Origin: Escherichia phage ECML-1
Direction: 5' to 3' (one strand)
Length of the DNA stretch: 64,000 nucleotides
Sequence record: OL631478.1
Shown piece after piece: positions 1-63,384 of this stretch. Position numbers and translations under genes: made by a program. Within the stretch, counting starts at the first letter, position 1, and each line of letters starts with the position of its first letter. Under the pieces are notes generated by a model. That model was given only the letters and a program-made list of their open reading frames with translations, did no database searches and was not told the DNA's origin.

Positions 1-332
1 GCACCACCAATTACAAAGACATCTTCATCAATAGAGCTATCAAGATACTTCAAAAATGCTCCAAATGACTCTTTACTGGCTTTAGCATACATTACATCAT
101 CTTTGCCAAAGTCTATGCCTAAGTATGGTACAGAATTTGTTAAGATGAGGTTTGCACGTTCTGGTAAAGGCTTACTCCCCAGAGTCTTGAAAGTCTCATT
201 ACCCATCACTACTAAGTTATTTTTAGTGAGTCTCTTAAACTCTTGCATGTCCTGTTTATGTCGAGGCCACGGCATACCAGTTGGAGTACCAAACTCACCA
301 TTTTCACCACTTGCAAAGATTAATTTAATCAT
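1..332 (-). CDS. frd: dihydrofolate reductase, partial (C-terminus runs off window start)
   Basis: Reverse-strand translation from ATG at 332..330 gives MIKLIFASGENGEFGTPTGMPWPRHKQDMQEFKRL..., matching the DHFR N-terminal pattern (T4 Frd-like MIKL..GLPW); no stop before position 1. Confidence 0.7.
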   Translation of the reverse strand, partial: MIKLIFASGENGEFGTPTGMPWPRHKQDMQEFKRLTKNNLVVMGNETFKTLGSKPLPERANLILTNSVPYLGIDFGKDDVMYAKASKESFGAFLKYLDSSIDEDVFVIGG

Positions 333-2469: not shown

Positions 2470-2850
2470 TTTTTATAAGGCTACTGCCATCCTTCCATAC
2501 CTTACCTAACCAAACCGAACCTCACACAACCAGACCGAGCCGCACCCCGCCTTATTAAAAGACCCTCTTAAAGACCTTTTAAAAAGGTAAGTCTCATTTT
2601 AATGTAGCTGAGACTAACTACCCGCACCGAACCTCACCTGACCTGACCGCGCCATACCTAACCGTGCCTTACCACACCTCACTTAAAAACCCTTTTAAAA
2701 GACTCTTAAGTGATGTAATCGAATTTTTATGTAGCTCCGATTAACTACCCATACCTCACTTTACCTAACCTGACCTTACAAGACCGTACCTGACCCGACC
2801 CCACCTCGCAGTACCTTGTTAAAAGACCCTCTTAAAGACCTTTTAAAAAG
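2470..2850. repeat. three tandem ~120 bp intergenic repeat units with G-depleted C/A-rich tracts
   Basis: Units each hold a 60-70 nt tract almost free of G on the + strand (e.g. tacccgcaccgaacctcacctgacctgacc) followed by cttaaaagaccctcttaaagaccttttaaaaag (2563-2588 and 2818-2850) or a close variant. Confidence 0.6.
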
Positions 2851-2866
2851 GAGCCTCCGAAGAGGC
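2841..2866 (-). terminator. intrinsic terminator (minus strand)
   Basis: Reverse complement reads agcctc-ttcg-gaggct followed by ccttttt; lies just downstream of the gene ending at 2879. Confidence 0.6.
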
Positions 2867-2878
2867 TACCTAGTCAAC

Positions 2879-3319
2879 TTAGAAAGGTTTTCTACGTTGC
2901 TTGTTAATGTTAGCTTTCATAGCAGCTAAATGGTTTTGCTGTTCAATCAGTCGTGAACGTTCTTGATGACTAAGTGCCATAGTGTTCACATTCTCAATCG
3001 CTTGAGTGGCTTGCTTTAAAGCACGACCAATCTTACCAGACATTTTACGTTTTGCAATAGTTGCTTGATGTTTAGGTTCAACCACACGATAACCAACACC
3101 CATTGAAGCAACCAGATAAATCTTCTCTTCTTTAAGAAGCTTCTCAATAAACTTCTCAAGTCGGTTTAGACGTGTAAGCGCATAAGCCTTCATTTCATCT
3201 TCGTACTTAACAATGTCACCTTGATAAGTTGGCTTCACAATACCTAAGAAGGTGTCCATCTCAGAATGTGATACAGTGTCACCGTAACTAAACTTTGCTG
3301 CTAATGCTTTTGTATTCAT
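2879..3319 (-). CDS. hypothetical protein
   Basis: 146 aa ORF. Confidence 0.5.
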   Translation of the reverse strand: MNTKALAAKFSYGDTVSHSEMDTFLGIVKPTYQGDIVKYEDEMKAYALTRLNRLEKFIEKLLKEEKIYLVASMGVGYRVVEPKHQATIAKRKMSGKIGRALKQATQAIENVNTMALSHQERSRLIEQQNHLAAMKANINKQRRKPF

Positions 3320-3321
3320 AA

Positions 3322-3927
<606 letters not shown>

Positions 3928-3989
3928 TTAGTTGATTGTTAAGTTGTTTGTAAAGAACCCTCAACAGAAGACTCTTTAGAAACTTGGTA

Positions 3990-4150
3990 GATTTTTAACG
4001 TGGCTACTACCATCCACCCATACCTCACCTAACAACACCTAACAACACAAAACTACACCCCACACCACCGCACCACACCAAACATCACTTAAAAACCCTC
4101 TTAGAAGACCCTTAAGTGATGCTGGTGAGTACCCGTTGGTTTATGCTGCT
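3990..4150. repeat. fourth copy of the G-depleted C/A-rich repeat unit
   Basis: ggctactaccatccacccatacctcacctaacaacacctaacaacac...cttaaaaaccctcttagaagaccc; same architecture as the 2470-2850 units, followed by the 8-bp-stem hairpin ggtgagta/tactcacc. Confidence 0.55.
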
Positions 4151-4186: not shown

Positions 4187-5290
4187 TTATTCGTAGTCTC
4201 GAATAACTAACCCAACAGGGAACTGTAAAGAACCTTTACGAGTCATCTTCTGGAACTGAACCGTCAAAGGTTTCCCGATAAACTCTTCAGGATGTTCAGC
4301 AAGATACTGTTTCTTCTCATGAGTAGTCTTCCATGAGACATCTACAAAGACGTTAGGAAGAGTCTCTACAACGAACTTGCCATGACCACGTTTATCAGTC
4401 TTTACACCAGTCACTTTAAACTCTTCAGTGTGCATCTTCTTGTGCTTAATCAAGAAGTATGAACGGTGACAACACTCATAGAAGGAGTCTTCAGAGATTG
4501 AACGGTACATTGCGCCTTCAAACTTAGCTTCAACCCACTTATCATGAGCTTCATCAAACTCTTCCCAAGAGTTAACACGACGAGATTTAACAGGGACAAC
4601 TTTACAGCCATCTCTAAAGTCATTCAATGGTGAAGTCTCAATAATATCTCTACGCTCAGGCCACGTCTTAGTACTATCACAGATATCATACCAGTAGAAC
4701 TTAAGTAAGTGTCTGTCAGGATTGTCTTCATTTTTAATCATGGAGACAATATCTTCTAAGTCCCACCCATGAGCATAAATCTCTCCATCAAATTCATCAA
4801 CATCTTTGTGGAGCCTTAACATTGCCATAATGTCGGGTATTAGTTCAGTAGGGATTTTATAAACAGTATTCTCACGAGAGTATGCTGTGAATACACTACC
4901 AATGCTTAAGTGTCTTGAAATTCTACAACGGACACCATCAAGTTTTGGTTGAGCATCAGCAGGGAACTTCAAATACTTTGCATGGCTAACCTTTGCAGCA
5001 TCATGAGCAAGCTGTACACCCACCTTCTCAGTATTCTGTGCAGACTCTTTTGTGTAAGCATAACCTTTACGGTCAACTTGCTTTTTATACTTAGCAGCAA
5101 CTTCAAAGAGAGCTTGCTGTTCAGCGTTACGCTCATTCTTTTTACCGATGTTTTTAGGTTCTGCTGTATACTCTTCAAACATCATCTTGCCATTTTCTTT
5201 ACCATAGGTTGTAATAACTTTGTCACCTACAGCAACACATGACCAGACGTTGAAGGAACCGTCTTTATTTTGTTTGTACAGAATTGTCAT
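4187..5290 (-). CDS. ATP-dependent DNA ligase
   Basis: KLDGVRC (ligase motif I, KxDGxR) in the translation; start placed at the internal ATG (MTILYKQ) that has an upstream GGAG-like Shine-Dalgarno rather than the ORF-track start at 5323. Confidence 0.65.
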   Translation of the reverse strand: MTILYKQNKDGSFNVWSCVAVGDKVITTYGKENGKMMFEEYTAEPKNIGKKNERNAEQQALFEVAAKYKKQVDRKGYAYTKESAQNTEKVGVQLAHDAAKVSHAKYLKFPADAQPKLDGVRCRISRHLSIGSVFTAYSRENTVYKIPTELIPDIMAMLRLHKDVDEFDGEIYAHGWDLEDIVSMIKNEDNPDRHLLKFYWYDICDSTKTWPERRDIIETSPLNDFRDGCKVVPVKSRRVNSWEEFDEAHDKWVEAKFEGAMYRSISEDSFYECCHRSYFLIKHKKMHTEEFKVTGVKTDKRGHGKFVVETLPNVFVDVSWKTTHEKKQYLAEHPEEFIGKPLTVQFQKMTRKGSLQFPVGLVIRDYE

Positions 5291-5292
5291 TT

Positions 5293-5484
5293 TTATTCCT
5301 CTGAGTGATACCAAGTATTGCAAGCATTACATGCGTAAAGCTCTAAGTCATTTTTATCCGGTTTATGAAAGCAGTTTGCTCCGCAGTGGCAACGGAATGG
5401 CTTTCCATCAACTGTCAGGATGAATGATTGAATCTTCCCATCAGGAGTTCGTACAGCATTTTTATGCTTGTCTTCTTTGTTCAT
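5293..5484 (-). CDS. small zinc-ribbon protein
   Basis: 63 aa with CHCGANC and CNACN motifs. Confidence 0.4.
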   Translation of the reverse strand: MNKEDKHKNAVRTPDGKIQSFILTVDGKPFRCHCGANCFHKPDKNDLELYACNACNTWYHSEE

Positions 5485-5783
5485 TTTCTCTTACCACCAA
5501 TCTCTACGTCGATAACTTGAACATCGCCAGCAACATCAAACTTATGAATGATGCTTTCAGCAGTGTAAGTCCAACCATCAATGCGAACCAACTCACCTTC
5601 TCGTGGGACGATTGGATTACGTTGAGCTATGGTTGCAGTGGAGTGAACAACGTCATAACGATAGATATAGTTTACTAGGACTTCCATCGTGAAAACCTCA
5701 CTCAATAACCGTAGTATGTGATTGACCATTTTTGCCGTAGCTATAAGATGTTGTTGTTTGAGAGTTTGGACATCTGACAACAA
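5481..5783 (-). CDS. hypothetical protein
   Basis: 100 aa ORF; overlaps the next ORF in another frame, so one of the two may be spurious. Confidence 0.4.
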   Translation of the reverse strand: MLSDVQTLKQQHLIATAKMVNHILRLLSEVFTMEVLVNYIYRYDVVHSTATIAQRNPIVPREGELVRIDGWTYTAESIIHKFDVAGDVQVIDVEIGGKRK

Positions 5784-5934
5784 TAATATCCCTACTTATA
5801 GCATCACCATGTAACTTGTATACTCTGCAATCTTGCATCTCTGGTGGGAGACTGTAAGAAGCATTTTTATCTTCATAAGAAGGGTTGCAGCCAGATAGAA
5901 AAATAACACCAAGTGCAATTACTGCTTTCCACAT
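5698..5934 (-). CDS. putative lipoprotein
   Basis: MWKAVIALGVIFLSGC N-terminus (signal peptide with lipobox-like LSGC); start taken at the internal Met. Confidence 0.4.
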   Translation of the reverse strand: MWKAVIALGVIFLSGCNPSYEDKNASYSLPPEMQDCRVYKLHGDAISRDIIVVRCPNSQTTTSYSYGKNGQSHTTVIE

Positions 5935-6121
5935 AATACTCACCCTATTACTGTTCACGATGTTCTACTTCTCTGTATGTGCGTCGGTAGTTTATGATAA
6001 GAGGTGCTAATTCATTGCTTTTAACATTTGAACGTAACAGTTGCCAGTCAAAACCTTTAGCGACTCTTCCATATAAATTAAATAACTTTACTTTGCGTTT
6101 CATTTTTGGTATCTCCAATAC

Positions 6122-6334
6122 TCAGATGTCAATATTAATACGCTCACCCTTAAGGACTCCTGTACGGTCTCTTGCAATCTTACCGTCAACAATAAGAATG
6201 TGTGCAGACCTTAAAGAATCATGATTAAAACCTTTTACGAACTTACTAGGCATCACTACAATAAGCATCTCCTGAATTAACTCTGGAGTGTAGCAATTGC
6301 CATGAAGTTGCTGAATAACGTCTGCAAGTGTCAT
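6122..6334 (-). CDS. hypothetical protein
   Basis: 70 aa ORF between the polymerase gene and the lipoprotein gene. Confidence 0.35.
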   Translation of the reverse strand: MTLADVIQQLHGNCYTPELIQEMLIVVMPSKFVKGFNHDSLRSAHILIVDGKIARDRTGVLKGERINIDI

Positions 6335-6395
6335 ATAACCTCCTATACAAGATACAGTATAAGGTACTCTTCCATGAGCACCTTGTCAACACTAA

Positions 6396-9095
6396 TTAGT
6401 GAACCTCAAGCCAGCTTTTACCAACCTTACCAGTACCTGTAACAAGCGTTTCTTTCTTAAGACCTAAGTTCTTAGAAGCTTGTCCATAATACCAGTCAGT
6501 AACTGCTTTCACTTCTGCCGTCATACTTTCTGGACATTCCCAACTCGTCTCGTCGTGATATGCGCAGAGTAAACGAGCACCAATAGCTGGTTTACGCCCA
6601 TTTAACTTCATTAAGCCTTCGTCAATCATACGACGGCAAGCAAGGTTAATTGCCTCATTTTGAATCTGAGCCTCTGAACCCATGAGCAAATAATTCAACA
6701 GCTTATGCGGAGATTTACACCACAACCAAGCTCCAGCAACCTTTACAAAACCCCCTTTAGAGATTGCAGCAGTCTTACCAAACACCTCTTCAAGTGCCTT
6801 TTTAGTTGCTTTGTAGTCAGCTTCCAAGTCATCTAACAGCTTCTTAATTTTAGGCAAACGTATAAAGTAAGTCTGTTTAGTCAGCGCACCTTCCTTAGTA
6901 GTCGCAGCTTTAATCGTCTTAGCAAACTTCTCATCACCTGCACCGAACAGCAGTGCATAGATACCATTCTTAGCTTTCTTACGACCTTTGCTAATCTCAT
7001 GAAGAAGATTCTCATCCTGAGTAGCTCGACAAGTCAAGATGTCCTGCTCATCATTCAAGCTAAAGTAAATACTGTTCAGTGTATGTGCATCAGTTCCTGA
7101 ATAGACAACGTACAGGTCATTCTCAGAGTCATAGCGAAGGTACTTATCAATCTCTGGGTTGAGGTACTCATCAAAGTGTTTGCAGTAATAGCGTCCATCT
7201 TCTTGACGAATGAACTCAATTTCTTCTTTACCTTGCGTTACCGCTTTGGTGAAGTCTTTATCACCCATAAAGTTACAAAGTAGAACTAGCTGGGCTGAGT
7301 TCATATCTACAGAGACAACGTTAGTACCTTCCTCACAAATCCACACTGCCCTCATTGGTTCCCCATAGACAGCAGCACCAGACGGTACGTTTACAATACC
7401 ATATTGTGTCATACGTCCAGTTGAAGTACCAAACACCATTGCACCAGCACTAAGGCGACCATCAGGACGAATCTGGTTCAACCAACCTTTTTCATCATCC
7501 TTTGAGTTCTCAATAGTTCTGCGTCGGTGCATCAAAGTATAGTACTTAGCAATCTTCTGTCCAAGCTCACCTTCAATCGTATCATAAGATGATTCAGTAA
7601 GTTTTGGTGAAGTACGGATTAAGCAAGGCTCAAGCAAATCTGTGTACTTCTTCACAGACCAGTTATGCTCAATGTACTGTACACCTTCATGTTCAACATA
7701 GCTCAAACCACACCGCTCAACCATTTCCTGCCACTTAGGATGTTTTGTAATCATCTTTTTATTGTCTTTGAAACGACAAACTTTGACAGGGCGACCGTCT
7801 GAGTCTTTCTTGTAGTTCCAGTCATCTGGAATCCAACCAACTGATTTCAAGTAGTCTTTAACAACTGCTACCTGAGTCATACGAGAAACTTCAAAATCAA
7901 TTGGTGTATATGGTGCATCAATCAAACCTGTGTAGCGACTTGACTCAAGCTCAAAGTGGTTAACAACGTGACTGTTATAGTACTTCACAGTTTTGACTGT
8001 TTTCACTGGCTTCCAGTCTTTGCATTTCTTACCAATCTTTGCATTCAACTCATTGCAAATTGCACGAGCATCCTTCATTGCTACAAAGCCTTCCTTGTAC
8101 TCTTCACCAGTTACAGAGTTGGTTGGTGTATAGCAATTCCTCTTTTCAATGTTAAAAATCTTTGTAGTTGGCTTACCAAATGGTTTGATTTCGTATGTCT
8201 GCATCTCACCGTTACGCACCTGTTGACGGTACTTCGTCTTAGGATACTTGGTGATTCTCTTCAACCCATCTGCATGACCAAATGTTTCAACATACTCATT
8301 CCAAGCCTTTGCAAACTCTTCACCAGTTACTTTACCTTTGGTCTTAATAGTTGGAGGTAGATGTGGTTCAACCTCTGAAGCAAGCTCATTAGTCAACTTG
8401 TCAAGTTCCTTTACATGGAACTCCATAAGCTCTTTATCAGCTTTCCAACCATTGATAGCTTGCTGGCTCATCCAGAAAGATGTTTCTTTAGCTCGCATGT
8501 AGGTTTCATAAGTATCTATGCCACACTTCTTAAGCTTGAGATACTCATTATCAAGTGCCCGTTTAGTTTTGGCGTTAATACGGATATCTTCTACAACACG
8601 AGTGAAGATTTCTGCATTCCACACACCCCAATGTTCAATCTCTGGTTTACGAACACCAACACGAGCACCCCATGCAGCCAAACCATGAGCACCTTTATAA
8701 CCCTTTGGAGTTGGTCTATCCATCCACTGAACACGAGACTGGATAAGAGAATCCTGAAAGAAATTACTCCACGGTTTACACTTTGGGTTATCAAAGTTCC
8801 ATAAATCAGGTGCAATGTGATTGAAAACCCACCAGTCATAACCGAGACCGTTATGGATGCAAAGACGTTTTGCCTTTAACGCAAACTCAATACCTTCACG
8901 TAAGCCACCCTTGATGTACTTGGTGTACTTGTGACCGAGAATAGGTTCATCTGTAAAGACCCATACAGGTGGCTCTTCATCGTCAGATTTATAGTCTGCG
9001 AAAGCCATTACGTGCACTTTAGTGAACTCAAGGAGTAAACCATCAGTTTCTGTATCACCAACTAAATGTAAGTTTTTAAAATCTACGTTTTCCAT
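6396..9095 (-). CDS. DNA polymerase, family A (T7-type) with N-terminal 3'-5' exonuclease domain
   Basis: N-terminal GDTETDG, HNGLGYDWWVF and HGLAAWGARVG motifs parallel T7 DNA polymerase exo motifs; about 900 aa; start placed at MENVDF (ATG at 9095) which follows an AGAGGGAG Shine-Dalgarno. Confidence 0.8.
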   Translation of the reverse strand: MENVDFKNLHLVGDTETDGLLLEFTKVHVMAFADYKSDDEEPPVWVFTDEPILGHKYTKYIKGGLREGIEFALKAKRLCIHNGLGYDWWVFNHIAPDLWNFDNPKCKPWSNFFQDSLIQSRVQWMDRPTPKGYKGAHGLAAWGARVGVRKPEIEHWGVWNAEIFTRVVEDIRINAKTKRALDNEYLKLKKCGIDTYETYMRAKETSFWMSQQAINGWKADKELMEFHVKELDKLTNELASEVEPHLPPTIKTKGKVTGEEFAKAWNEYVETFGHADGLKRITKYPKTKYRQQVRNGEMQTYEIKPFGKPTTKIFNIEKRNCYTPTNSVTGEEYKEGFVAMKDARAICNELNAKIGKKCKDWKPVKTVKTVKYYNSHVVNHFELESSRYTGLIDAPYTPIDFEVSRMTQVAVVKDYLKSVGWIPDDWNYKKDSDGRPVKVCRFKDNKKMITKHPKWQEMVERCGLSYVEHEGVQYIEHNWSVKKYTDLLEPCLIRTSPKLTESSYDTIEGELGQKIAKYYTLMHRRRTIENSKDDEKGWLNQIRPDGRLSAGAMVFGTSTGRMTQYGIVNVPSGAAVYGEPMRAVWICEEGTNVVSVDMNSAQLVLLCNFMGDKDFTKAVTQGKEEIEFIRQEDGRYYCKHFDEYLNPEIDKYLRYDSENDLYVVYSGTDAHTLNSIYFSLNDEQDILTCRATQDENLLHEISKGRKKAKNGIYALLFGAGDEKFAKTIKAATTKEGALTKQTYFIRLPKIKKLLDDLEADYKATKKALEEVFGKTAAISKGGFVKVAGAWLWCKSPHKLLNYLLMGSEAQIQNEAINLACRRMIDEGLMKLNGRKPAIGARLLCAYHDETSWECPESMTAEVKAVTDWYYGQASKNLGLKKETLVTGTGKVGKSWLEVH

Positions 9096-9154
9096 TTTTA
9101 CTCCCTCTAAAATCATTAACCTCATACATTACTGCAAAAAATTATAAAAAGCAA

Positions 9155-9178
9155 GTTGACAATGCACTTGACAAGGTG
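9155..9178. promoter_or_regulatory. conserved divergent-junction motif gttgacaatgcacttgacaaggtg (two tandem TTGACA boxes)
   Basis: Near-identical copy at 55625..55648, the other divergent junction; a perfect TATAAT on the minus strand lies at 9141..9146. Confidence 0.45.
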
Positions 9179-9352
9179 TTAATCTTTGCGAAGTGGGTTT
9201 TTACTTAAAAGGTTACTTAACAGTTTAACTATACAGATACTTTAAAACTCTTAAAAGATTATTTAATAGCTTTTAAAAAGCTTTAAAGTATAACGTATAG
9301 AATACGTTAAGATAAAAGATTAAAACTTAATAGTTACTTAAAAGAGGCTTAC

Positions 9353-9775
9353 ATGCAGAAAATGTTTGTTCACCCAGACATAGCTGACTTTGTTAGAGCT
9401 TTGCAGAAGTTGGAAGAACTTGACATTGCTGCTCAACGGGAATATGCTCACCATCACAGGAGAATGGTTGATATACAACATGAAATAGAGTTGTCTGAAA
9501 ACTATGAAGATGACTTAAAATGCTCTGTATTTGAGCATATGAAAGATGTTGCTACAGCTAGACGTAAAGCCAAAGACACAGTTGCTTTACTAGATTCTCT
9601 TAAAAAGAGGTTGCAAAGTGGTACAGACCTGTGTAATCTAGCATCACTGATTAACGATGTCGAAACTTCTTGGGATAGACACTACTATCCACGTTCTGAA
9701 AAGACACTTGACTTTTCTTCATCAGAAAACTTAAAATGTTCTAGAAAGAAACTTAACCAACTGAGAGAGAAATAA
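9353..9775 (+). CDS. hypothetical protein
   Basis: 140 aa ORF, first gene of the rightward block. Confidence 0.5.
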   Translation: MQKMFVHPDIADFVRALQKLEELDIAAQREYAHHHRRMVDIQHEIELSENYEDDLKCSVFEHMKDVATARRKAKDTVALLDSLKKRLQSGTDLCNLASLINDVETSWDRHYYPRSEKTLDFSSSENLKCSRKKLNQLREK

Positions 9776-9776
9776 T

Positions 9777-10577
9777 ATGAATATCGATGTAGAAAAGATG
9801 CTTGAAGAGAAAGGTGTTGATGAAGCATTCTTAATCAATGCCGTAGAAAGCATGGCTATGATTCTTCGTGGTAACAACTACACAGAACAGTTTATGCCTG
9901 CAAGCTATAACTTGCCTGAAGACAAGTCTGATAACGGTGCTTTTGCAGAACAGGTCAACATGATGTTAACAGACACTACACTTGCTCTGGCATCTATTGC
10001 GGTTGGTGTTGATGCACTTGCTGAGTTCATTTTTTATGAAATGCAAAAGAATGACTATATCAGGATGTCAGACGAAGATAAGGAACTGTTGCTGACTAAG
10101 GACACTGATTCCATTATTGATACGCTTATCTCATCAACGAGTGCTGTTATGGCTGTTCTTGAGAAGCGTATGGAAGAGAAACTTTCACGATATGAAAAAC
10201 TTGATTGGGGCGTAGAAGAATTAAACCCACGAATCAAAGAGATTATCCAGCAAACTAAAGAGTCTTTGGAAGAAGCTGTTGAAAATGACTCTGTAGCTGA
10301 CATTGAACCACTTCAGGTGAAAGTTGCACTGATGATTCCAGCTATCTCTACGATGATGAATATCGTTGCACTAATCCAACTGTCACAGATGATGGGTGTG
10401 AGTATTGAGTTCATTGAGGAAATGACTGGTGGCGTTAGTATGCAAGCAATCAATGATGTTTTGGTGAATATTGGTGCTTCAATCATTGAAGAGAAGCTAC
10501 GCATTAACTTCGGTGATGATTTTGTGAAGCAAATCTCAGCTATGGCTGAAAAAGAGTCTGCTGACCAACTGCACTAA
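9777..10577 (+). CDS. hypothetical protein
   Basis: 266 aa ORF. Confidence 0.55.
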   Translation: MNIDVEKMLEEKGVDEAFLINAVESMAMILRGNNYTEQFMPASYNLPEDKSDNGAFAEQVNMMLTDTTLALASIAVGVDALAEFIFYEMQKNDYIRMSDEDKELLLTKDTDSIIDTLISSTSAVMAVLEKRMEEKLSRYEKLDWGVEELNPRIKEIIQQTKESLEEAVENDSVADIEPLQVKVALMIPAISTMMNIVALIQLSQMMGVSIEFIEEMTGGVSMQAINDVLVNIGASIIEEKLRINFGDDFVKQISAMAEKESADQLH

Positions 10578-10594
10578 GTCTTTATAAATCTTAC

Positions 10595-10620
10595 AAGCCT
10601 CCTTAGTTGGGGGCTTTTTA
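10595..10620 (+). terminator. intrinsic terminator
   Basis: aagcctcc-ttagtt-gggggctt followed by ttttt. Confidence 0.55.
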
Positions 10621-10638
10621 GTAATTAAGGGAGATAAA

Positions 10639-11382
10639 ATGAGTAATATTATCGCATTTACTGGAAAGGCACGTTCTGGAAAAGACACCTCATGTTCTAT
10701 TGTGAAGAACATCTTAGAGGATGAGTATGGCTACAATGTTGCTGTAATGGCCTTTGCAGACAACCTTAAACTGTCTGCATCAAAGATATTTGACCTGACT
10801 TGGAATGACCTGTATGGTGAAACTAAAGAGACTCCACAGGTATTTGACTTATCATATCCTGAACTGATGTTTAAAGTTACGGAAGCTATGGAGTTCACCT
10901 TCAGAGATGAACGTTACCATATGGACTTCAAGCTTATGTCAGAGTTAACCGGACGATTAATCATGGAGCTTAAGAAGGTTGCTAAACCTACCCTATTAAC
11001 ACGTCTGGGATTTAGTAAAAAGTATAAATTCTCATCAAGACAAATTCAACAGATTTGGGGTACTGAAGTTGTCCGTAAAGTAATGGGCGACAAGTTCTGG
11101 TCTAAAGACCTTGAAAAAAGAATGGTTAGATTCCATGAAATGTGCTCACTTAGAAATCAATATGGTTTTGTCTTAATCAGTGATTTAAGATTTGACTCTG
11201 AAGCTGAATGGCTGAGTAGATTTGCACACCAAACTATTGAAGTAAAAAGAGACAATGTGGACAAAGTTTCATCACATGTTTCAGAAAATGGGATTTCTAC
11301 AAAATATGAGCGTGACATTATTCATAATAATGGTACTCTTGCAGACCTTGAGAACAAGCTAAGAGCCATCATTAAAGTTTAA
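10639..11382 (+). CDS. deoxynucleoside monophosphate kinase
   Basis: N-terminal P-loop IIAFTGKARSGKDT closely parallels the T4 gp1 dNMP kinase N-terminus; size (247 aa) fits. Confidence 0.6.
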   Translation: MSNIIAFTGKARSGKDTSCSIVKNILEDEYGYNVAVMAFADNLKLSASKIFDLTWNDLYGETKETPQVFDLSYPELMFKVTEAMEFTFRDERYHMDFKLMSELTGRLIMELKKVAKPTLLTRLGFSKKYKFSSRQIQQIWGTEVVRKVMGDKFWSKDLEKRMVRFHEMCSLRNQYGFVLISDLRFDSEAEWLSRFAHQTIEVKRDNVDKVSSHVSENGISTKYERDIIHNNGTLADLENKLRAIIKV

Positions 11383-11390
11383 AAGAGAGA

Positions 11391-11591
11391 ATGAAGATGA
11401 GAGTAAAAGACAATTTTAAAGTTATTGACCACCGTTTAGTGGAACTCTCATCTCTTTCCAATGAGGTAATGATTGAACGTCTTAAGAGAGTTGAATCACG
11501 AAGGAAAGAGATTGCAGATGAAATTCATGAACTGGACAAGATTGAAAATGGATTGAAGGCAGAACTACAACGAAGAGGTGCTAATGTCTAA
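11391..11591 (+). CDS. small coiled-coil protein
   Basis: 66 aa; overlaps the primase-helicase start by a few codons. Confidence 0.4.
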   Translation: MKMRVKDNFKVIDHRLVELSSLSNEVMIERLKRVESRRKEIADEIHELDKIENGLKAELQRRGANV

Positions 11592-13569
11592 AGGTCGTAA
11601 ATTGAAAGAGGCTGGTCAGTTTATTGGTCATTGTGCATGTCCACGTTGTGGTTCATCAGATGCTGGTTCAATCTATCATCATGACGATGATTCTTATTCG
11701 ATGACTTGCTTTAGTTGTAACAAAGGTTTCCCAGAGTGGGATTTTGATAAAGGACAAATCGTGAGCACTTATTCTACTGGTTCAGACAATAAAAACCGTA
11801 CTTTCCGTGGAATGGATTTAGACGATGTAAAAGAAAACCTTGAAGCAATGGACTTGAAAGACAGGAAGATTCCTGCAAAAGTTCTTGAGCGTTTGGGTAT
11901 TAAGGTTGACATTGACAGTGATGGTGAAATTGACGCGCATTTCTACCCAACTTACAAACGCAATGAAGATGGCAAGCTAGAGCATGTTGGCTACCGTGTT
12001 CGTCACCGTTACCCAGAAGACCATCCAAAAGAACACCTACGTGGTAAGCTAAAAGACTTTTCAGGTGGTGTTGGAGACATTAAAGGTGAACTGGCAATGT
12101 TCGGTTCATGGATTGCTCCAGAAGGTGGCAACCGTCTATTCATCTGGGAAGGTGAGATGGAATGCGCTACAGCAATCTACATGACTTCTCTGGCGATTAA
12201 AGATAAGTCTCGTCGTAAGAATTACTGTCACGTATCTGTTCCATCAGGTGCAAACATTAAGTCTATCAAAGACAACTATCAGTACATCACATCGTTTGAT
12301 GAGATTTACTTGTGCTTTGATAACGATGAAGCAGGTGCTAAAGCTACCAAAGAGGCTGCTGGTATCCTACCTATTGAGAAGGTTCGTTTATTCCAGTATC
12401 CAGAAGGTGTAAAAGACCTTAACGAATGGTGGACAAAGTTCTATAAAGAGAAAGATACAGTTCTGGAAGGATTTAAGCAGCGTATCTACAACGCACCTCG
12501 TTACTGCCCTGCTGGTATCAAGAACTTTGCAGATGGTTTTGAGGCAATGAGGAATCGTGGTCAGATTCCATTGATTCCTTTCCCAGAGTCTTTCGGAGAT
12601 TTGAACAGGCTGACTTATGGTGGTTATGGTTTAGGTGAGATTACAACTATTGCAGCACCATCTTCAGTAGGTAAGTCAGCTTACACTCGTGAGATGATTT
12701 ATTCAGCTTGGAAAGAAACTGATTATAATATCGGTGTAATTCCTGTAGAAGATACCTATGAAGAGTTGATGGAGATGCTCTGTGCAATTCACCTGAGCAA
12801 ACAGATTTCTGAGATTCCTTATGATGAACGGGATTGGGATGAATTAAAAGGAGCACACGCAGAACTATCTAAAGGTCGTCGTATCCATATCGTTGACCAT
12901 CAAGGGGCAATTGACCAAGATAACCTGCTAGAGTTTGTTGACTATCTTGTTAACAGTTTAGATTGCAAGATTATCATTCTTGACCCTATCACGTTAGCCC
13001 TGTCACGTTCAGATACGGATGAAGAGGAAGTTTTGTCTGAGCTATTGCGTCGTTGCAAACGCTACCAGTATGCGCAGGTAAACGTATGTCACGTTCGTAA
13101 GAGTGCAGGTGGTCAGAAAGCTAACTCTGAAGGTGGGGATATCTCTGAAGAGGATATCAAGGGTTCTGGTGCGTATTTCCAGATTTCCATGAATAATATT
13201 TTGTTAATGCGTAACAAGGTTGACCCAGACCCTGTTAAGAAAAACTTGACAAAAATCAAGTTAACTAAATGTCGTCGTCACGGTAAGTCAACGGGTATTG
13301 CTGGTCATACTTGGTACAATCCAGATACAGGGCGTCTCATTAAAGCATCTGGTTGTGGAGTTGACATTGATGGTGCAGCAGAAAATATCCGTCAACAGTT
13401 TGGTATTGGTGAGGCTGAAGACCATTACGATGACTCTTTGCCACATTATGAGGATGAAGTGTTTGACCGTGAGACTGGTGAAGTCTATACTGATGAGCAG
13501 CGTCAAAGCTCAACGATTCCACCTGTATTAAGTGAGGATGCAGATGACTGCCCGTTCGAAACTGAGTGA
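11578..13569 (+). CDS. bifunctional DNA primase/helicase (T7 gp4-like)
   Basis: N-terminal zinc ribbon CACPRCGSSD...CFSCNKGF, then a DnaB-family helicase with Walker A (GLGEITTIAAPSSVGKS) and Walker B-like IIILDP. Confidence 0.8.
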   Translation: MLMSKGRKLKEAGQFIGHCACPRCGSSDAGSIYHHDDDSYSMTCFSCNKGFPEWDFDKGQIVSTYSTGSDNKNRTFRGMDLDDVKENLEAMDLKDRKIPAKVLERLGIKVDIDSDGEIDAHFYPTYKRNEDGKLEHVGYRVRHRYPEDHPKEHLRGKLKDFSGGVGDIKGELAMFGSWIAPEGGNRLFIWEGEMECATAIYMTSLAIKDKSRRKNYCHVSVPSGANIKSIKDNYQYITSFDEIYLCFDNDEAGAKATKEAAGILPIEKVRLFQYPEGVKDLNEWWTKFYKEKDTVLEGFKQRIYNAPRYCPAGIKNFADGFEAMRNRGQIPLIPFPESFGDLNRLTYGGYGLGEITTIAAPSSVGKSAYTREMIYSAWKETDYNIGVIPVEDTYEELMEMLCAIHLSKQISEIPYDERDWDELKGAHAELSKGRRIHIVDHQGAIDQDNLLEFVDYLVNSLDCKIIILDPITLALSRSDTDEEEVLSELLRRCKRYQYAQVNVCHVRKSAGGQKANSEGGDISEEDIKGSGAYFQISMNNILLMRNKVDPDPVKKNLTKIKLTKCRRHGKSTGIAGHTWYNPDTGRLIKASGCGVDIDGAAENIRQQFGIGEAEDHYDDSLPHYEDEVFDRETGEVYTDEQRQSSTIPPVLSEDADDCPFETE

Positions 13570-13821
13570 TAGCTATAAAAGAGAGGGGTTCATACCCTTC
13601 TTTGAAGAAAAAAGTTTAAATAAATTTCAGGAAGAGTGTTTGACAAAGGTTGATAGGTTCTATAGAATGCTCTACATGAAATGTGATGGTGGTGTCGAAG
13701 TAGAGAAAAAGTCCTATCACAATACTGTCACAGTCATCATCACTATACCTGAACATAATATTGGTTGGCTGTTTGTAATAAAAGAAAATGTGTTTGAATA
13801 TCAAGTATATCGGAGAATATC

Positions 13822-13971
13822 ATGAAACACTCTAAAGCATTTGAAAAAGTTTTTGGGGATTCCTTAAAAGTCACTGCTGGAAAACCAGCAAAATACTATG
13901 AAGAGAAGCGTGTAAGAACTGGAAAAACTGCACGTAAAGCAGCTTCTAAAGATAAGCACAACTTCCAGTAA
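13822..13971 (+). CDS. small basic protein (49 aa, not in ORF track)
   Basis: ATG at 13822 to TAA at 13969-13971; MKHSKAFEKVFGDSLKVTAGKPAKYYEEKRVRTGKTARKAASKDKHNFQ. Confidence 0.25.
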   Translation: MKHSKAFEKVFGDSLKVTAGKPAKYYEEKRVRTGKTARKAASKDKHNFQ

Positions 13972-13978
13972 TTAATGT

Positions 13979-14007
13979 TTGACAATAGAGTATCAACAAA
14001 TTAGAAT
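13979..14007 (+). promoter_or_regulatory. sigma70-like promoter
   Basis: TTGACA, 17 nt spacer, TAGAAT, upstream of the gene starting at 14044. Confidence 0.55.
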
Positions 14008-14043
14008 TGGTACTCTTCATAAATTGAGATAGAGGTTTAAATA

Positions 14044-14901
14044 ATGTCTAAAGTTGTTAAAATGAAAGCTCCGGTAGAGAAGTACAACGGTACTGAACGT
14101 CAAACTCTGCGTTACCTTCTGAAAGATGTCTGGTTTTATTACCTGAACACTTCACCACGTCCGGGAAAAGGCAAGTCCATTGATAAGAAATTCCCAGGCA
14201 AAGACTGTAACTACAGCGTTTCAATTCTGGCAGAAGATGGTAACAAGCTGTTTAAAGAGTTTACTAAGTCTAAGAAAAACCCAGAAGGTTGGGATAAAGT
14301 TACCACTGAAGCAGTTGATGCAGATGACTTCGAAGAGAAGTTTGGTTGCAAACCACCATTTGAAGCAGACACTTACTACATCTTGAAAGTAAGTCGTGCA
14401 GCAGCTTATAAAGATGGTGCTGTATGGACAGCTAAACAGTCATTCCCTGTAATGCTGATTGAAGAAGTAAATGGTAAGCGTGTAGCTGTTAAGCAGCCGA
14501 TGAAGAAAATCAAAGCTCAAGCATCTGACAAACATGAAGATGATAAGAACTATGATGTAATTCATCCAGATATTGCAGTTGGTAACGGTTCTTTTGGTAG
14601 TGTGATTCTTTCTACTCACTTCTACACTTTTGAGAACAATGTCTTGACAAAGCCTATTCAGGAACAGTTTATCATTGATACTCTTGTACCTTACACTGGT
14701 GGTAACGGTGCTAACGGTGAACCTGAACTGGATGAAGATGAACTGGCTATGCTTGGTCTTGATGGTGTCGAAGATAACGGTGAAATCACTGAAGAAGACG
14801 CAACAGACCATAAATCTTCGAATGATTCTGATGATGGTGACGATGAAGACTTGCCAGACCCAGATGACGAAGAAGATGAAGACTTCGATACAGAAGACTA
14901 A
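14044..14901 (+). CDS. putative ssDNA-binding protein with acidic C-terminal tail
   Basis: Acidic C-terminus (DDEEDEDFDTED) as in T7 gp2.5 and T4 gp32; sits in the replication module. Confidence 0.4.
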   Translation: MSKVVKMKAPVEKYNGTERQTLRYLLKDVWFYYLNTSPRPGKGKSIDKKFPGKDCNYSVSILAEDGNKLFKEFTKSKKNPEGWDKVTTEAVDADDFEEKFGCKPPFEADTYYILKVSRAAAYKDGAVWTAKQSFPVMLIEEVNGKRVAVKQPMKKIKAQASDKHEDDKNYDVIHPDIAVGNGSFGSVILSTHFYTFENNVLTKPIQEQFIIDTLVPYTGGNGANGEPELDEDELAMLGLDGVEDNGEITEEDATDHKSSNDSDDGDDEDLPDPDDEEDEDFDTED

Positions 14902-14918
14902 TCTCTAAAAGTTACTTT

Positions 14919-14948
14919 AAAGCCCTGTACTTAGTATGGGGCTTTTTC
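14919..14948 (+). terminator. intrinsic terminator
   Basis: aaagccc...gggcttt hairpin followed by a T-run. Confidence 0.5.
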
Positions 14949-14963
14949 ATATGGAGAGCCATA

Positions 14964-16010
14964 ATGGAGAAGTACACATTAACAAAGCTTCCCGATTCAG
15001 TTACACATATCTTTATTGACTCTGACAGCATTGCCTATAAAGGTGCTTGTGTAGTTGAGAAAGCAAAGTATAAATACGTTAATAAACTCACAGCAGAAGA
15101 ATCTGAACCATTTGATAATGCGAAAGATGCTGCAAGATGGTTAGCAGACCAGAGAATCCTTGTGGAAGAGCTTGGCCTGACATTTGATGAAGATGAATGG
15201 GAAAGACAGACTTGGAAAGAAGCTAAGAGTGAAAAAGAAGCTATCATGGCTACTCAACAGGTGCTTCAGGAATGGCTTAAGGTTGTTGGGAAAGAAAGAA
15301 CTTGGGTAGGCTATTTAACAGAGAAAGGTGTGCATAAACATAAAGACATTAAAGGTCTTGAGCACCAATATCAAGGTAACCGTAAAGATGCTGTCACACC
15401 AACACACTTAGTCGCTTGTCGTGAATATCTTTTATCCAGACCAGAGTTCAAACTGATTCTTGATGGATTTGAAGCTGACTCTATCGTTATTGCTAAAGCT
15501 GAAAAGATGGGAAAAAAAGCTGCCTTAATGAGTATTGATAAAGACCTTCGCCAAGCTGAAGGTACTTACTGCATTGATATGACCTATGAAAAATCACCTT
15601 TAATTTTCATTGCTGATAACAACGTTGGTGAAATTTGGGATTGTCCAATAAAATCGACACCAAAAGCTAAGAAGACAGTTGGTGTAGGTTTTAAGTTTCT
15701 TTGTTATCAAGCTGTTGCTGGTGATAATGCGGATAATTATTTTGGTTTAAAGGGTGTTGGTAAGGCTGCTGTGATGAAGGCTCTTGAAGGGAAAACAACT
15801 TACAAAGAGTGTCTTGATGCAATTTACGAGTTATATGCTAAGAAAGACTCCTATACTTATGTATCATGGGATGGTCAGACAATCACCAGAACACCTTTAG
15901 AATTAATGCAGCAACACTTTTTCTTAGCTTATCAGGAAAGAAACAAGAAAGACGATTTTACTTTTGATAAGTATGGGTGGACACCAAATGTTAACTCAAC
16001 AAACTCTTAA
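14964..16010 (+). CDS. 5'-3' exonuclease (T7 gp6-like, FEN family)
   Basis: Motifs IFIDSDSIAY, GNRK, DGFEADS, SIDKDLRQ and VAGDNADNYFGLKGVG follow the T7 gene 6 exonuclease pattern. Confidence 0.6.
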   Translation: MEKYTLTKLPDSVTHIFIDSDSIAYKGACVVEKAKYKYVNKLTAEESEPFDNAKDAARWLADQRILVEELGLTFDEDEWERQTWKEAKSEKEAIMATQQVLQEWLKVVGKERTWVGYLTEKGVHKHKDIKGLEHQYQGNRKDAVTPTHLVACREYLLSRPEFKLILDGFEADSIVIAKAEKMGKKAALMSIDKDLRQAEGTYCIDMTYEKSPLIFIADNNVGEIWDCPIKSTPKAKKTVGVGFKFLCYQAVAGDNADNYFGLKGVGKAAVMKALEGKTTYKECLDAIYELYAKKDSYTYVSWDGQTITRTPLELMQQHFFLAYQERNKKDDFTFDKYGWTPNVNSTNS

Positions 16011-16479
16011 AGAATACCTGCACTATGACCCCGAAACAGGGGTCTTTACTTGGATTAAGAAGTCTGCTAAGCACACAAAAATTGGTTCTGTTGCAGGTAC
16101 AAACTTAAGGGGATACATCAGAATCTATTTGTTTGGTAAGGGTTATTATGCACATACACTGGCTGTTCTGTATATGGACGGTTACCTTCCTGAGTGTGTT
16201 GACCATAAAAACCATGTAACCCTAGATAATCGCTGGATAAATCTTAGGGCATGTACGTTATCAGAGAACCAATGTAATAGGTTACTCAATAAGAATAATA
16301 AATCAGGTGTTAAAGGTGTGTACTACAAAAAACAGTATGGTAAGTGGGCTACACAGATAACTTTTAAGAAGAGAGTTTACTTCTTCGGCAACTATGACAC
16401 GATTGCTGAAGCAGCAGAGGTTGTAAATAGGGAACGCCAACGTTTACACAGAGAGTTTGCTAATAAAGGTGATGAATGA
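15964..16479 (+). CDS. HNH homing endonuclease with AP2-like DNA-binding domain
   Basis: YYAHTLAVLYMDGYLPECVDHKNHVTLDN then SGVKGVYYKKQYGKWATQITF; true start may be an internal Met. Confidence 0.55.
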   Translation: MISMGGHQMLTQQTLKEYLHYDPETGVFTWIKKSAKHTKIGSVAGTNLRGYIRIYLFGKGYYAHTLAVLYMDGYLPECVDHKNHVTLDNRWINLRACTLSENQCNRLLNKNNKSGVKGVYYKKQYGKWATQITFKKRVYFFGNYDTIAEAAEVVNRERQRLHREFANKGDE

Positions 16480-16976
16480 GAAAAATAAAAGGTTTTGGCA
16501 ATTGCCCTGAATATGGTCACTGGATTTCACTATGTGGTGAAGTTGACCCAGCAAAGCACTTTGGTTTTGTCTACCTAGTGTACTGTAAAAAGACTGGACA
16601 GTACTATTTGGGTAAGAAACAGCTTAATAGTGTGACCAAAAGAAAAGTTGCTGGGAAGACTCGGAAGAAGGTAGTCACTAAGGAGAGTGATTGGATGACT
16701 TACGAAACCTCTTCTGAGTATATTAAAAAAGATATTGAGAGCTTTGGAAAAGAATTTTTTGACTTTTACATTATTCAGACCTACTACACAAAAGGTGGCC
16801 TAGTCTATGGTGAAGCAAACCTTCAACATAAATTCGATGTAATGACAAAAAGGATTGACTCGAAGCTCAGACTCTTCTACAATGCCAATATTGCAGCAAT
16901 TAAGTTTATTACTAAAGAAACTTATGAAGATGCTGAAAAAAGAATCCATAAGGTAATGAAAGCAAATTGTGCTTGA
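16476..16976 (+). CDS. putative GIY-YIG homing endonuclease
   Basis: N-terminal GFVYLVYCKKTGQYYLGKK resembles the GIY-YIG motif. Confidence 0.45.
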   Translation: MRKIKGFGNCPEYGHWISLCGEVDPAKHFGFVYLVYCKKTGQYYLGKKQLNSVTKRKVAGKTRKKVVTKESDWMTYETSSEYIKKDIESFGKEFFDFYIIQTYYTKGGLVYGEANLQHKFDVMTKRIDSKLRLFYNANIAAIKFITKETYEDAEKRIHKVMKANCA

Positions 16977-16982: not shown

Positions 16983-17246
16983 TTGAGAGAGAATAAAATG
17001 TTTAACAAAAGCAAAGCTGTGAGTCATGTAGCAAAAGTTGACAGCAAGATTGAAGAACTTGAGCGCATCCTTGCAAATGCTAGAGAGTCAATAATCAAAG
17101 AAGTTGAAGCTGTTGAATCTCAAATGCAGCACCTAATGCTTAAACGTCAAGAGCTACGTGAGCATCTAGAATATATTGAAACACGAGAGCTAAAAGTTAA
17201 CAGATATTTTAAGGAGTCCGAATGTTTAACTCAAGAGAATCAGTAA
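16983..17246 (+). CDS. hypothetical coiled-coil protein
   Basis: 87 aa ORF. Confidence 0.4.
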   Translation: MRENKMFNKSKAVSHVAKVDSKIEELERILANARESIIKEVEAVESQMQHLMLKRQELREHLEYIETRELKVNRYFKESECLTQENQ

Positions 17247-17977
17247 AAAACTGGAACCTTCGTTGTGGAAACACTCAAAAGCAACCTTACAGTAATGAGT
17301 ATTGGGAATCTTTAAAATCTCAATCTCTGTGTATGCTTGAAGAAGCAAAAGAGCTTGTAAAAGCAATTGAAGAGAAAGACCCCATTGAGACACTGGATGC
17401 TCAGGCAGATTTACAATATGTTCTTGACGGTTTGATTTACCTGTCACAACATGACCATAACGGTGCTATGGAAGCTGTTTGCCATAATAATGACCTGAAG
17501 TACACAGATGACTATGAAGAAGCTTTAAAACGTCTTGCAGACATTGAAAAGCGTACTGGTCAAGAGTGTATTATTCGAATGTCAGTGGTTGATGGTAAAG
17601 AGTGGTATGCGATTGTCCGTGCAGCCGATGGGAAGATTATGAAGCAATCAAATCTCCCTAAAGTACAGCTTGGTGAATACATTGTAGAGCTTGAAAGCCA
17701 AGAACTTTTTGTGGTAGTATCTGAGACATGCGTTATCTGCAAAGGTATTGTAGGTAGCTTAAAGGATTTGGGTGTAGATGGTTTTGTAGAAGTTAATCCA
17801 ATTACCTCTAAAGCAGATAAAGACTTCTGTAAAGAGAATGGACTATGGATTGCAGATATTGTCTACTATGATGGTGAGCAGTTCCATGTAACCTCATACC
17901 CGAAACTGAATTATGATGCTAATAACCTGAAGTGCTGGTTAAAAGGGGTTGGTTATAATGGATTCACAGAACATTAA
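17222..17977 (+). CDS. putative MazG-like nucleotide pyrophosphohydrolase
   Basis: N-terminal EEAKELVKAIEEKDPIETLDAQADLQYVLDGL has a MazG-like acidic pattern; low certainty. Confidence 0.35.
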   Translation: MFNSRESVKNWNLRCGNTQKQPYSNEYWESLKSQSLCMLEEAKELVKAIEEKDPIETLDAQADLQYVLDGLIYLSQHDHNGAMEAVCHNNDLKYTDDYEEALKRLADIEKRTGQECIIRMSVVDGKEWYAIVRAADGKIMKQSNLPKVQLGEYIVELESQELFVVVSETCVICKGIVGSLKDLGVDGFVEVNPITSKADKDFCKENGLWIADIVYYDGEQFHVTSYPKLNYDANNLKCWLKGVGYNGFTEH

Positions 17978-20945: not shown

Positions 20946-21203
20946 ATGAAAGATTTAATAGAAAAACATGAGCGACCAATATACTTGCTCTACAAACCCC
21001 GCAAAGCATTGTACTATGTGAGCAGCACAGGTATCATGATAAAGCAGAATAATGACTTATGGGTCACTGGAGCCTCTTACATCTCTACAGTAGATGGTAA
21101 AATCTACGCAAGACCTTATGAGATGTTTAACAAAGAAAATTGGGAAGTTTTAGACAGAAAACAAGCCTTAGAAATGATAAAGAAAGGAGAAATCACGCTA
21201 TGA
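20946..21203 (+). CDS. hypothetical protein
   Basis: Start taken at the internal Met (MKDLIEKHERP) after nrdA stop; overlaps nrdB start by 4 nt. Confidence 0.35.
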   Translation: MKDLIEKHERPIYLLYKPRKALYYVSSTGIMIKQNNDLWVTGASYISTVDGKIYARPYEMFNKENWEVLDRKQALEMIKKGEITL

Positions 21204-28866: not shown

Positions 28867-28874
28867 GTAACAGT

Positions 28875-29366: not shown

Positions 29367-29380
29367 GAGAGAGATAAAAT

Positions 29381-50420: not shown

Positions 50421-50503
50421 TCTTTTACCATGTCTCTTGTCTAGAAACTAAAAAGGGAACTACCTCTCGATAGCTCCCATCATAATCAGTGTTGTATACT
50501 CGG

Positions 50504-52501: not shown

Positions 52502-52520
52502 AGTTTTCTCCTTAGAAAAT

Positions 52521-52542: not shown

Positions 52543-52552
52543 TATGAAGATA

Positions 52553-63382: not shown

Positions 63383-63384
63383 TG

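Follow-up and report, generated by a model that had tools for sequence, protein, structure and literature searches.

The window analyzed here is a stretch of 64,000 nucleotides of the Escherichia phage ECML-1 genome (sequence record OL631478.1), that is, 64 kb out of the ~87-kb genome. The analysis concerns the DNA replication genes located at positions 4187–16010 of this window and the nucleotide metabolism genes associated with them. The following open reading frames (ORFs) were recognized in this region, including those of a deoxynucleoside monophosphate (dNMP) kinase and a putative single-stranded DNA-binding protein (SSB):

4187–5290, minus strand: ATP-dependent DNA ligase of 367 aa, counted from the ATG (the ORF extends to 5323), of the same length as the ligase coding sequence of the related phage JK55; Pfam DNA_ligase_A_M (E-value 5.7e-7) and DNA_ligase_OB_2
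6396–9125, minus strand: family A DNA polymerase, T7 gp5-like, with an N-terminal 3'-5' exonuclease domain, uninterrupted; Pfam DNA_pol_A (E-value 4.4e-15)
9353–9775, plus strand: conserved protein of 140 aa, function unknown, with which the rightward unit begins; phrog_4039, no Pfam match
9777–10577, plus strand: 266-aa acidic protein with the database label "minor tail protein"; phrog_4251, no Pfam match
10639–11382, plus strand: dNMP kinase of the T4 gp1 type; Pfam DNMK PF21448 (E-value 4.9e-21, full length)
11578–13569, plus strand: fusion of zinc ribbon, TOPRIM primase and DnaB-family helicase of the T7 gp4 type, likely start ATG at 11584; Pfam Toprim_2 and DnaB_C
14044–14901, plus strand: 285-aa putative SSB of the T7 gp2.5 family with an acidic tail of ~65 residues; profile, hhalign and predicted fold
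14964–16010, plus strand: 5'-3' exonuclease of the FEN / T7 gp6 type; phrog_107 exonuclease (E-value 7e-66) and a weak 5_3_exonuc SAM-fold match

An earlier note on this DNA had described the region as an unplaced mosaic, worth placing, in which T7-type replication proteins coexist with T4-type nucleotide metabolism genes. As to the location of the genes, this description was partly correct: the ligase, polymerase, dNMP kinase, primase-helicase, acidic-tailed protein and exonuclease are encoded within 4187–16010, whereas frd lies at the window start and nrdAB, nrdDG and rIIA lie outside the region at 18.6–34.1 kb.

The nucleotide sequence of the region was compared with 50,697 phage records using megablast. 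As a result, 284 records were found to match, 226 of which spanned 80% or more of its length, and 205 records fell into the 90–95% identity band. Nearly all of them are phages of Escherichia, Salmonella, Shigella or Citrobacter that belong to Felixounavirus, or other Ounavirinae. Similar results were obtained for the remainder of the window. For positions 1–25,000, the matches showed 94–96% identity (200 of 287 matching records cover at least 80%), for 25,001–50,000 they showed 93–96% (4 of 277), and for 50,001–64,000 again 93–96%, Felix O1 itself being among the latter matches (94.8% identity over 96% of the length). Each third of the window was colinear with Felixounavirus genomes at 93–96% identity over 81–100%, the genus-level threshold used being roughly at least 70% nucleotide identity together with colinearity with member genomes. 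The middle third, 25,001–50,000, is the most variable part of the window among relatives. The G+C content is ~0.35–0.43 throughout the window, and does not change abruptly from the replication block to the nucleotide metabolism block, and the sign of the GC skew tracks the direction of transcription and flips at ~9 kb.

Gene content is in agreement with nucleotide similarity. The gene set taken as characteristic of Felixounavirus and Ounavirinae includes a T7-like polymerase and primase-helicase, nrdABDG, frd, dNMP kinase, PRPP synthetase and NAMPT (nicotinamide phosphoribosyltransferase), rIIAB, and about 20 tRNA genes, all of which were found in the window, and td, whose position falls outside it. 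In their description of the Felix O1 genome, Whichard et al. (2010, PMC3185647) list the same genes and report podovirus and T7-group proteins as the best hits of the Felix O1 polymerase (Gp96) and primase-helicase (Gp101). The genes shared with Felix O1 and other felixounaviruses follow the same order (ligase, polymerase, dNMP kinase, primase-helicase, exonuclease, nrdABDG with glutaredoxin, PRPP synthetase, NAMPT, rIIAB and the tRNA cluster), and gene content differs from theirs at the strain level only. In addition, most of the same genes are annotated, largely in the same order, in the Erwinia phage phiEa21-4, which belongs to the distant genus Kolesnikvirus. The shared set comprises td, frd, ligase, polymerase, a conserved protein, dNMP kinase, primase-helicase, a hypothetical protein of the size of the SSB, exonuclease, MazG, nrdAB, grx, PRPP kinase and nadV. 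The conserved protein is gp91 of phiEa21-4, a "conserved phage protein" resembling one of Felix O1; it is close in size to the product of the 9353–9775 ORF of the window, and its gene occupies the same place. The two genomes differ in that nrdDG is not among the annotated genes of phiEa21-4, where the ligase gene directly follows frd and extra genes are located between the ligase and polymerase genes.

The best protein hits of the polymerase, NrdA, dNMP kinase, primase-helicase and SSB-like protein all belonged to Ounavirinae. Thus, the best hits were confined to one well-characterised group with this same gene set, an outcome that the earlier note itself had named as speaking against its reading. 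Nothing was found that contradicts the placement in Felixounavirus. The region almost certainly represents the conserved early and middle part of the genome of a Felix O1-like virulent myophage (Felixounavirus, Ounavirinae), in which the mixture of T7-like and T4-like genes is old and stable across the subfamily and does not reflect recent mosaicism. The gene combination is therefore already known, having been published in 2010 and being present in hundreds of sequenced relatives.

A recent mosaic, in which this genome or a small clade would have gained a T7-type replication cassette or T4-type nucleotide genes horizontally, is very improbable. Such an origin could account for the T7-like replication proteins standing beside a dNMP kinase and rII proteins of T4-type families, and local differences in gene content from relatives do exist, namely homing endonuclease genes and the VIPR (Viral Interference Programmable Repeat) cassette described below. 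However, the same set is found in more than 200 genomes at 90–95% DNA identity, as well as in a different genus and in the 2010 publication, and the insertions and deletions observed concern single endonuclease genes or the VIPR cassette and never the replication or nucleotide metabolism genes. Moreover, the similarity to T7 and T4 proteins is ancient, because protein identities are only 21–31%.

Still less probable is the assignment of the window to another group of large virulent phages in which nrd, frd and td genes accompany a family A polymerase, such as the T5-like or rV5-like phages. NrdA is 55% identical to that of an rV5-like phage and ~37% identical to those of T5-like phages, and the exonuclease domain of the polymerase also matches rV5-like and phiTE-like phages; these similarities are, however, far below the 92–100% identity with Felixounavirus proteins among the hits listed, and no DNA-level match to T5-like or rV5-like phages was reported in the megablast searches with the region and with positions 1–25,000 of the window. 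An assembly chimera of T7-like and T4-like phage contigs is scarcely credible either, for which the mixed protein affinities and nothing beyond them would speak, since the window is colinear, at 93–96% identity and across all junctions, with many independently sequenced complete genomes and shows no sharp change in G+C content between the blocks.

As for the replication proteins, T7 proteins were compared directly with the window proteins using BLASTP. The polymerase showed similarity with T7 gp5 in both the polymerase domain (E-value 1e-13) and the exonuclease domain (E-value 2e-5), and the exonuclease motifs of the two proteins aligned (LVGDTETDGL with IVSDIEANAL and HNGLGYD with HNGHKYD, window and T7, respectively), which bears out the T7-like motifs proposed earlier. 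Sequences of T7 DNA polymerase were its only hits in PDB. The protein is 99.8% identical to the polymerase of phage finno and 63% identical to that of Erwinia phage Panisse, a relative of phiEa21-4. Outside Ounavirinae, its next relatives are found in large Vibrio phages (29–30%), followed by PaP3/LUZ24-like and T7-like podoviruses. A point against a close T7 likeness is that the window polymerase is ~200 residues longer than gp5. Extra sequence is present between the segments aligned with T7 residues ~290 and ~314. The T7 polymerase itself carries an insertion in the thumb that binds host thioredoxin, its processivity factor.

The primase-helicase is 28% identical to T7 gp4A over the full length (E-value 5e-46), and the closest matches among solved structures are those of T7 gp4 (E-value 7e-41 in PDB). 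Its zinc ribbon (CPRCGSSD...CFSCNK) aligned with that of T7 gp4 (CDNCGSSD...CYVCEK), in agreement with the fused primase/DnaB-type helicase recognized in the earlier note. The 5'-3' exonuclease, which had been called gp6-like, is indeed similar to T7 gp6 (21% identity, E-value 9e-7). The presence of an ATP-dependent ligase was likewise confirmed by Pfam, but BLASTP revealed no significant similarity with T7 gp1.3 (E-value 1.2), and the T7-type label was dropped for this protein. Its nearest solved chains are 6imj, named only "DNA ligase", and the Chlorella virus ligase; the nearest homologs of the Felix O1 ligase are likewise eukaryote-like (PMC3185647).

Taken together, the window encodes a gp5-like family A polymerase, a primase-helicase with zinc ribbon, TOPRIM and DnaB-family domains in one polypeptide, a gp6-type exonuclease and a putative SSB with a gp2.5-family fold and an acidic tail, which shares a C-terminal motif with the helicase. 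The ligase resembles that of T7 in being ATP-dependent by Pfam, although it is not gp1.3-like. The likeness to T7 has its limits: identity with the T7 proteins is only 21–28%, the virion is of the myovirus type, and the genes are arranged in an order that has no relation to T7. In addition, a phage-encoded single-subunit RNA polymerase that drives the expression of replication genes is a hallmark of the T7 supergroup, whereas Felix O1 is reported to encode no RNA polymerase (PMC3185647), which argues against membership in the T7 group proper but not against a T7-like replisome.

The acidic-tailed protein of 285 aa (14044–14901) falls into PHROG 3877, a family of "unknown function", and relatives carry it under the label "hypothetical protein". 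The earlier note had called it SSB-like, a call that is absent from the public annotation and is backed here by profile and fold evidence. A word-indexed search with this protein found 14 relatives only, all of them close. When a profile of these 14 relatives was run exhaustively against 1.84 billion representatives, 64 proteins were found, mostly 200–240 aa in length. In the 50-sequence alignment obtained from this search, five members match Pfam SBB_T7 and three match Enc34_ssDNA-bd. The profile of this alignment matches T7 gp2.5 (PDB 1je5) with an E-value of 1.6e-7, and hhalign gave a probability of 94% against gp2.5 with the same deep alignment. Remote members of the family end in classic SSB tips (...DDDIPF, ...DDLPF, ...DDEW).

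3D modeling of the 285-aa protein using AlphaFold (AF2) with the deep alignment gave a model with a pLDDT of 84.7; a first model, based on 10 close homologs, was set aside (pLDDT 50.9, with Foldseek hits at the level of noise). According to the Foldseek search of PDB with the deep-alignment model, the top nine hits were all chains of the gp2.5/Enc34/DUF2815 family (probability 0.96–1.00, E-values 3.5e-5 to 1e-2), and the rest were noise. The top hits include 4klk, the SSB of Enterobacter phage Enc34 (5odj) and T7 gp2.5 (1je5). The best structural matches, with a Foldseek probability of 1.00, belong to the Enc34 SSB / DUF2815 family (5odj, 4klk), from which the window protein differs in being ~60–100 residues longer and in having extra N-terminal strands and a longer acidic tail.

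Several results weigh against the assignment of this protein as an SSB. Direct BLASTP comparison with T7 gp2.5 was not significant, and the hhalign probability was only 22% with a shallow profile made from Ounavirinae alone. TM-scores were modest, at 0.27–0.34 by query and 0.40–0.53 by target. The link to known SSBs is transitive, depending on intermediate sequences and on a predicted fold, and the protein has no direct match in Pfam or, by phmmer, among PDB sequences. On balance, the profile and model evidence supports the 285-aa protein as a member of the T7 gp2.5 SSB family, which would provide a functional name for a protein labelled hypothetical in the records of relatives and of unknown function in PHROGs.

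The C-termini of the putative SSB and the primase-helicase resemble each other. In the window they read ...EEDEDFDTED and ...DADDCPFETE, respectively, in phiEa21-4 ...DDDDDVPFKTE and ...DDDDIPFRTE, and in T7 ...EDGDF and ...NDTDF. The tail of the window SSB contains 26 aspartate and glutamate residues in the last 50 positions, with a phenylalanine at position -5. By manual count, F/W-x-T-E is located at the C-terminus or no more than three residues from it in all 16 of the closest SSB-family proteins, and an F-x-T-x tip was found in ~11 of the 17 closest primase-helicases. The tips change in parallel in the two proteins between genera (CPFETE and DFDTED in the window, IPFRTE and VPFKTE in phiEa21-4).

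SSBs of the gp2.5 type are characterized by an OB fold and an acidic C-terminal tail whose aromatic tip is essential. In T7, the acidic tails of the SSB and the helicase both bind the polymerase. By analogy, the two tails of the window proteins probably dock on the polymerase, with a tip specific to the lineage, F-x-T-E in place of the terminal phenylalanine of T7. The aromatic residue of the window tails is not the last one, unlike in T7, so the analogy may be inexact, which is a point against it. The common peptide, an acidic run followed by F-x-T-E, suggests that there may be one docking site on the enlarged polymerase for which the SSB and the helicase compete, a lineage-specific form of the T7 replisome handshake; we consider the chances of this to be about even. 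If it is true, the shared docking would also point to an SSB function for PHROG 3877.

The following replication scheme can be proposed. Transcription of the replication genes diverges from a switch point at ~9.2 kb. The polymerase, small ORFs and ligase belong to the leftward unit; the rightward unit starts with the replication genes from the dNMP kinase to the exonuclease, including those of the primase-helicase and SSB, and continues with the genes of nucleotide supply. The hexameric primase-helicase of the gp4 type would unwind the DNA and synthesize primers, and the proofreading family A polymerase of the gp5 type would copy both strands. The gp2.5-type SSB may coat the lagging-strand template, the gp6-type 5'-3' exonuclease may remove primers, and the ATP-dependent ligase may seal nicks. 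Deoxynucleoside triphosphates would be supplied by two ribonucleotide reductases of the phage, one aerobic and one anaerobic, which have a glutaredoxin of their own, by dihydrofolate reductase, by the broad dNMP kinase and by a MazG-like pyrophosphatase; the thymidylate synthase gene is located just outside the window. The PRPP synthetase-like enzyme and NAMPT may serve NAD salvage. The replication mechanism itself is inferred by homology with T7, which should be counted against it.

The genes of the window outside the region, including those of nucleotide supply, are the following:

1–332, minus strand: N-terminal 110 codons of frd (dihydrofolate reductase), the rest of the gene lying beyond the window start; Pfam DHFR_1 (E-value 2e-18, profile positions 1–97 of 159)
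15964–16479, plus strand: HNH-AP2 homing endonuclease, overlapping the 3' end of the exonuclease gene
16476–16976, plus strand: SegE-like GIY-YIG endonuclease; Pfam E-value 9e-27
17222–17977, plus strand: MazG-like protein
18656–20890, plus strand: nrdA, which together with nrdB encodes an aerobic class Ia ribonucleotide reductase; Pfam Ribonuc_red_lgC (E-value 9e-91)
21140–22273, plus strand: nrdB; Pfam Ribonuc_red_sm (E-value 2.3e-34)
22273–22515, plus strand: glutaredoxin; Pfam Glutaredoxin (E-value 4.4e-7)
22763–24907, plus strand: nrdD, anaerobic class III reductase; Pfam NRDD (E-value 6e-114) with ATP-cone and Gly_radical
25960–26445, plus strand: nrdG, activase; Pfam Fer4_12 (E-value 2.7e-43) with Radical_SAM
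27985–28866, plus strand: PRPP synthetase-like protein
29381–31162, plus strand: NAMPT
31738–34104, plus strand: rIIA; phrog_612 RIIA (E-value 1.8e-189)
34184–35293, plus strand: rIIB; phrog_609 RIIB (E-value 2.4e-89)
57810–63556, plus strand: cluster of 25 tRNA genes

A dihydrofolate reductase is annotated in JK55 at the place homologous to the window frd. The PRPP synthetase-like and NAMPT genes (27985–31162), which follow the nrd cluster, are the NAD-salvage pair typical of the group. Felix O1 contains 22 tRNA genes (PMC3185647).

The T4 likeness of the nucleotide metabolism genes varies between proteins. The dNMP kinase showed similarity with PDB 1dek, "deoxynucleoside monophosphate kinase" (E-value 6.8e-4), which is T4 gp1, and is 24–25% identical to the kinases of T4-like Acinetobacter phages, so that a gp1-type kinase is present as in the T4 set. 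NrdA matches class Ia R1 chains such as 4r1r of E. coli (E-value 1e-126 in PDB). Its identity is 55% with NrdA of the rV5-like phage FV3, 49% with that of ICP1, ~37% with those of T5-like phages and ~31% with those of T4-like phages; a specific relationship with the T4 clade was not found for this protein. The same enzyme families occur in T4, among them the rII pair and the gp1-type dNMP kinase, which is otherwise phage-specific, but the genes form one rightward cluster in the window and are dispersed in T4. No hydroxymethylase or other T4 DNA-modification enzymes were found among the window ORFs scanned. Judging by these protein comparisons, "T4-type" is a functional analogy and not a phylogenetic statement, a loose label because NrdA is closer to those of rV5-like and ICP1 phages than to that of T4. 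The labels "T7-type" and "T4-type" of the earlier note are loose with respect to the ligase and NrdA, respectively.

Strain-level differences in gene content were determined from the alignment of the window with its relative JK55. The HNH-AP2 endonuclease (15974–16472 in the alignment) is present in the window and absent in JK55, while JK55 has a small ORF and an HNH endonuclease gene beside the polymerase gene that the window lacks. In many relatives, the polymerase or ligase gene is split or flanked by endonuclease genes, whereas both are intact in the window, with no such endonuclease. A third difference is a stretch of ~1.2 kb at roughly 2755–4057, absent in JK55, which contains the vipr-vap cassette considered below.

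Two database labels deserve attention. The homologs of the 16476–16976 gene in JK55 and phiEa21-4 are annotated as "NAD synthetase", which, given the GIY-YIG match, is probably an inherited misannotation of a SegE-like endonuclease. The label "minor tail protein" of the 9777–10577 gene (phrog_4251) is doubtful. The gene is located within the replication module. By its position it corresponds approximately to gene 98 of Felix O1, a number deduced from Gp96 being the polymerase and Gp101 the primase-helicase, and a product of about this number does not appear among the virion proteins named for Felix O1 in the abstract of the genome paper (PMC3185647).

To the left of the replication region, on the minus strand at 2495–4110, the sequence corresponds to an apparently complete locus of VIPR, an RNA-guided silencing system that is already known. 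It consists of the following elements:

2495–2551, 2622–2678 and 2749–2815, minus strand: three downstream vrRNA tracts of GGY/NN pentamers (span 2851–2495)
2879–3319, minus strand: ORF of 146 aa in the vap position, directly after vipr; phrog_5926, no Pfam match
3322–3924, minus strand: vipr, RAMP-family protein; PDB 36pp_D "SUSP1 Vipr protein" (E-value 2.4e-128, ~98% identity over 195 residues)
4021–4110, minus strand: upstream vrRNA tract of GGY/NN pentamers, degenerate

The VIPR system was described in two 2026 preprints (10.64898/2026.04.26.720920, 10.64898/2026.04.26.720927). According to them, Vipr, a member of the RAMP family, polymerises on vrRNAs composed of alternating GGY and NN units; the NN dinucleotides read double-stranded DNA, one base being skipped per unit, and the transcription of competing phages or satellites is silenced. 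The vrRNA genes contain 9–16 tandem GGY/NN pentamers and a conserved 3' tail and flank vipr. Both the RAMP-family Vipr protein and the flanking vrRNA genes were found in the window, in the same layout as in SUSP1, with one vrRNA upstream of vipr and three downstream. The vap-position ORF has homologs in the same flanks of other array loci and was putatively assigned to vap by its position.

In the window, the stretch absent in JK55 is flanked by a family of 90-nt repeats. Each copy contains ~11–14 pentamers, NNACC on the plus strand, that is, GGYNN on the transcribed minus strand; relatives retain the pentamer pattern but not its sequence. A periodic pattern of seven units occurs six times in the window and not once in 100 shuffles of it. 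The exact eight-unit pattern was found in at least 120 IMG/VR contigs, and many of the 88 listed out of these 120 contain 4–18 tandem tracts split by short conserved delimiters. One IMG/VR locus has 18 overlapping, staggered tracts. ORFs located within 3 kb of the tracts were clustered for the 39 IMG/VR contigs with at least three tracts, and a family of ~200-aa proteins, always encoded on the GGYNN strand and including the 3322–3924 product of the window, was present in 32 of these loci. In the other seven contigs no ORF of the Vipr family was found within 3 kb; one of them has 17 tracts, and some loci are short or cut. The profile of the family matches one solved structure, 36pp "SUSP1 Vipr protein" (E-value 7e-48). 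Rfam contains no match for the pentamer arrays, and a literature search on pentanucleotide repeats yielded nothing matching them. Other readings of the arrays (an RNA site for a TRAP-like ring protein, a Rho loading site, decoys for restriction or BREX sites, G-quadruplexes, a replication origin, primase sites or a packaging site) were dropped because the associated protein matches the solved SUSP1 Vipr structure and the VIPR papers.

The vipr gene was found in 129 phage records, and in 116 of them, including phiSUSP1 (97%), the identity is at least 95%. Of the 129 records, 25 annotated ones were listed, and in all of these the gene is labelled "hypothetical protein" or has no feature. By contrast, the dNMP kinases of phiSUSP1 and the window share only 70% identity. 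JK55 lacks vipr and vap but retains three GGY/NN-like tracts (JK55 4403–4743). The high conservation of Vipr compared with this kinase, together with the arrays kept without vipr in JK55, suggests that vipr-vap is a mobile or often lost cassette. Such orphan arrays might act in trans or might be remnants. The exact target patterns with one skipped nucleotide (xNN) of three of the four vrRNAs had no match in IMG/VR viral contigs.

In practical terms, the analysis offers a name for the putative SSB, a testable tail motif common to the helicase and this SSB, corrections of two database labels, and recognition of the VIPR locus. As for the combination of T7-like and T4-like genes, its significance in itself is small: the window is placed firmly in a well-studied genus, and what looked like a mosaic is almost certainly the ancestral layout of the whole subfamily.

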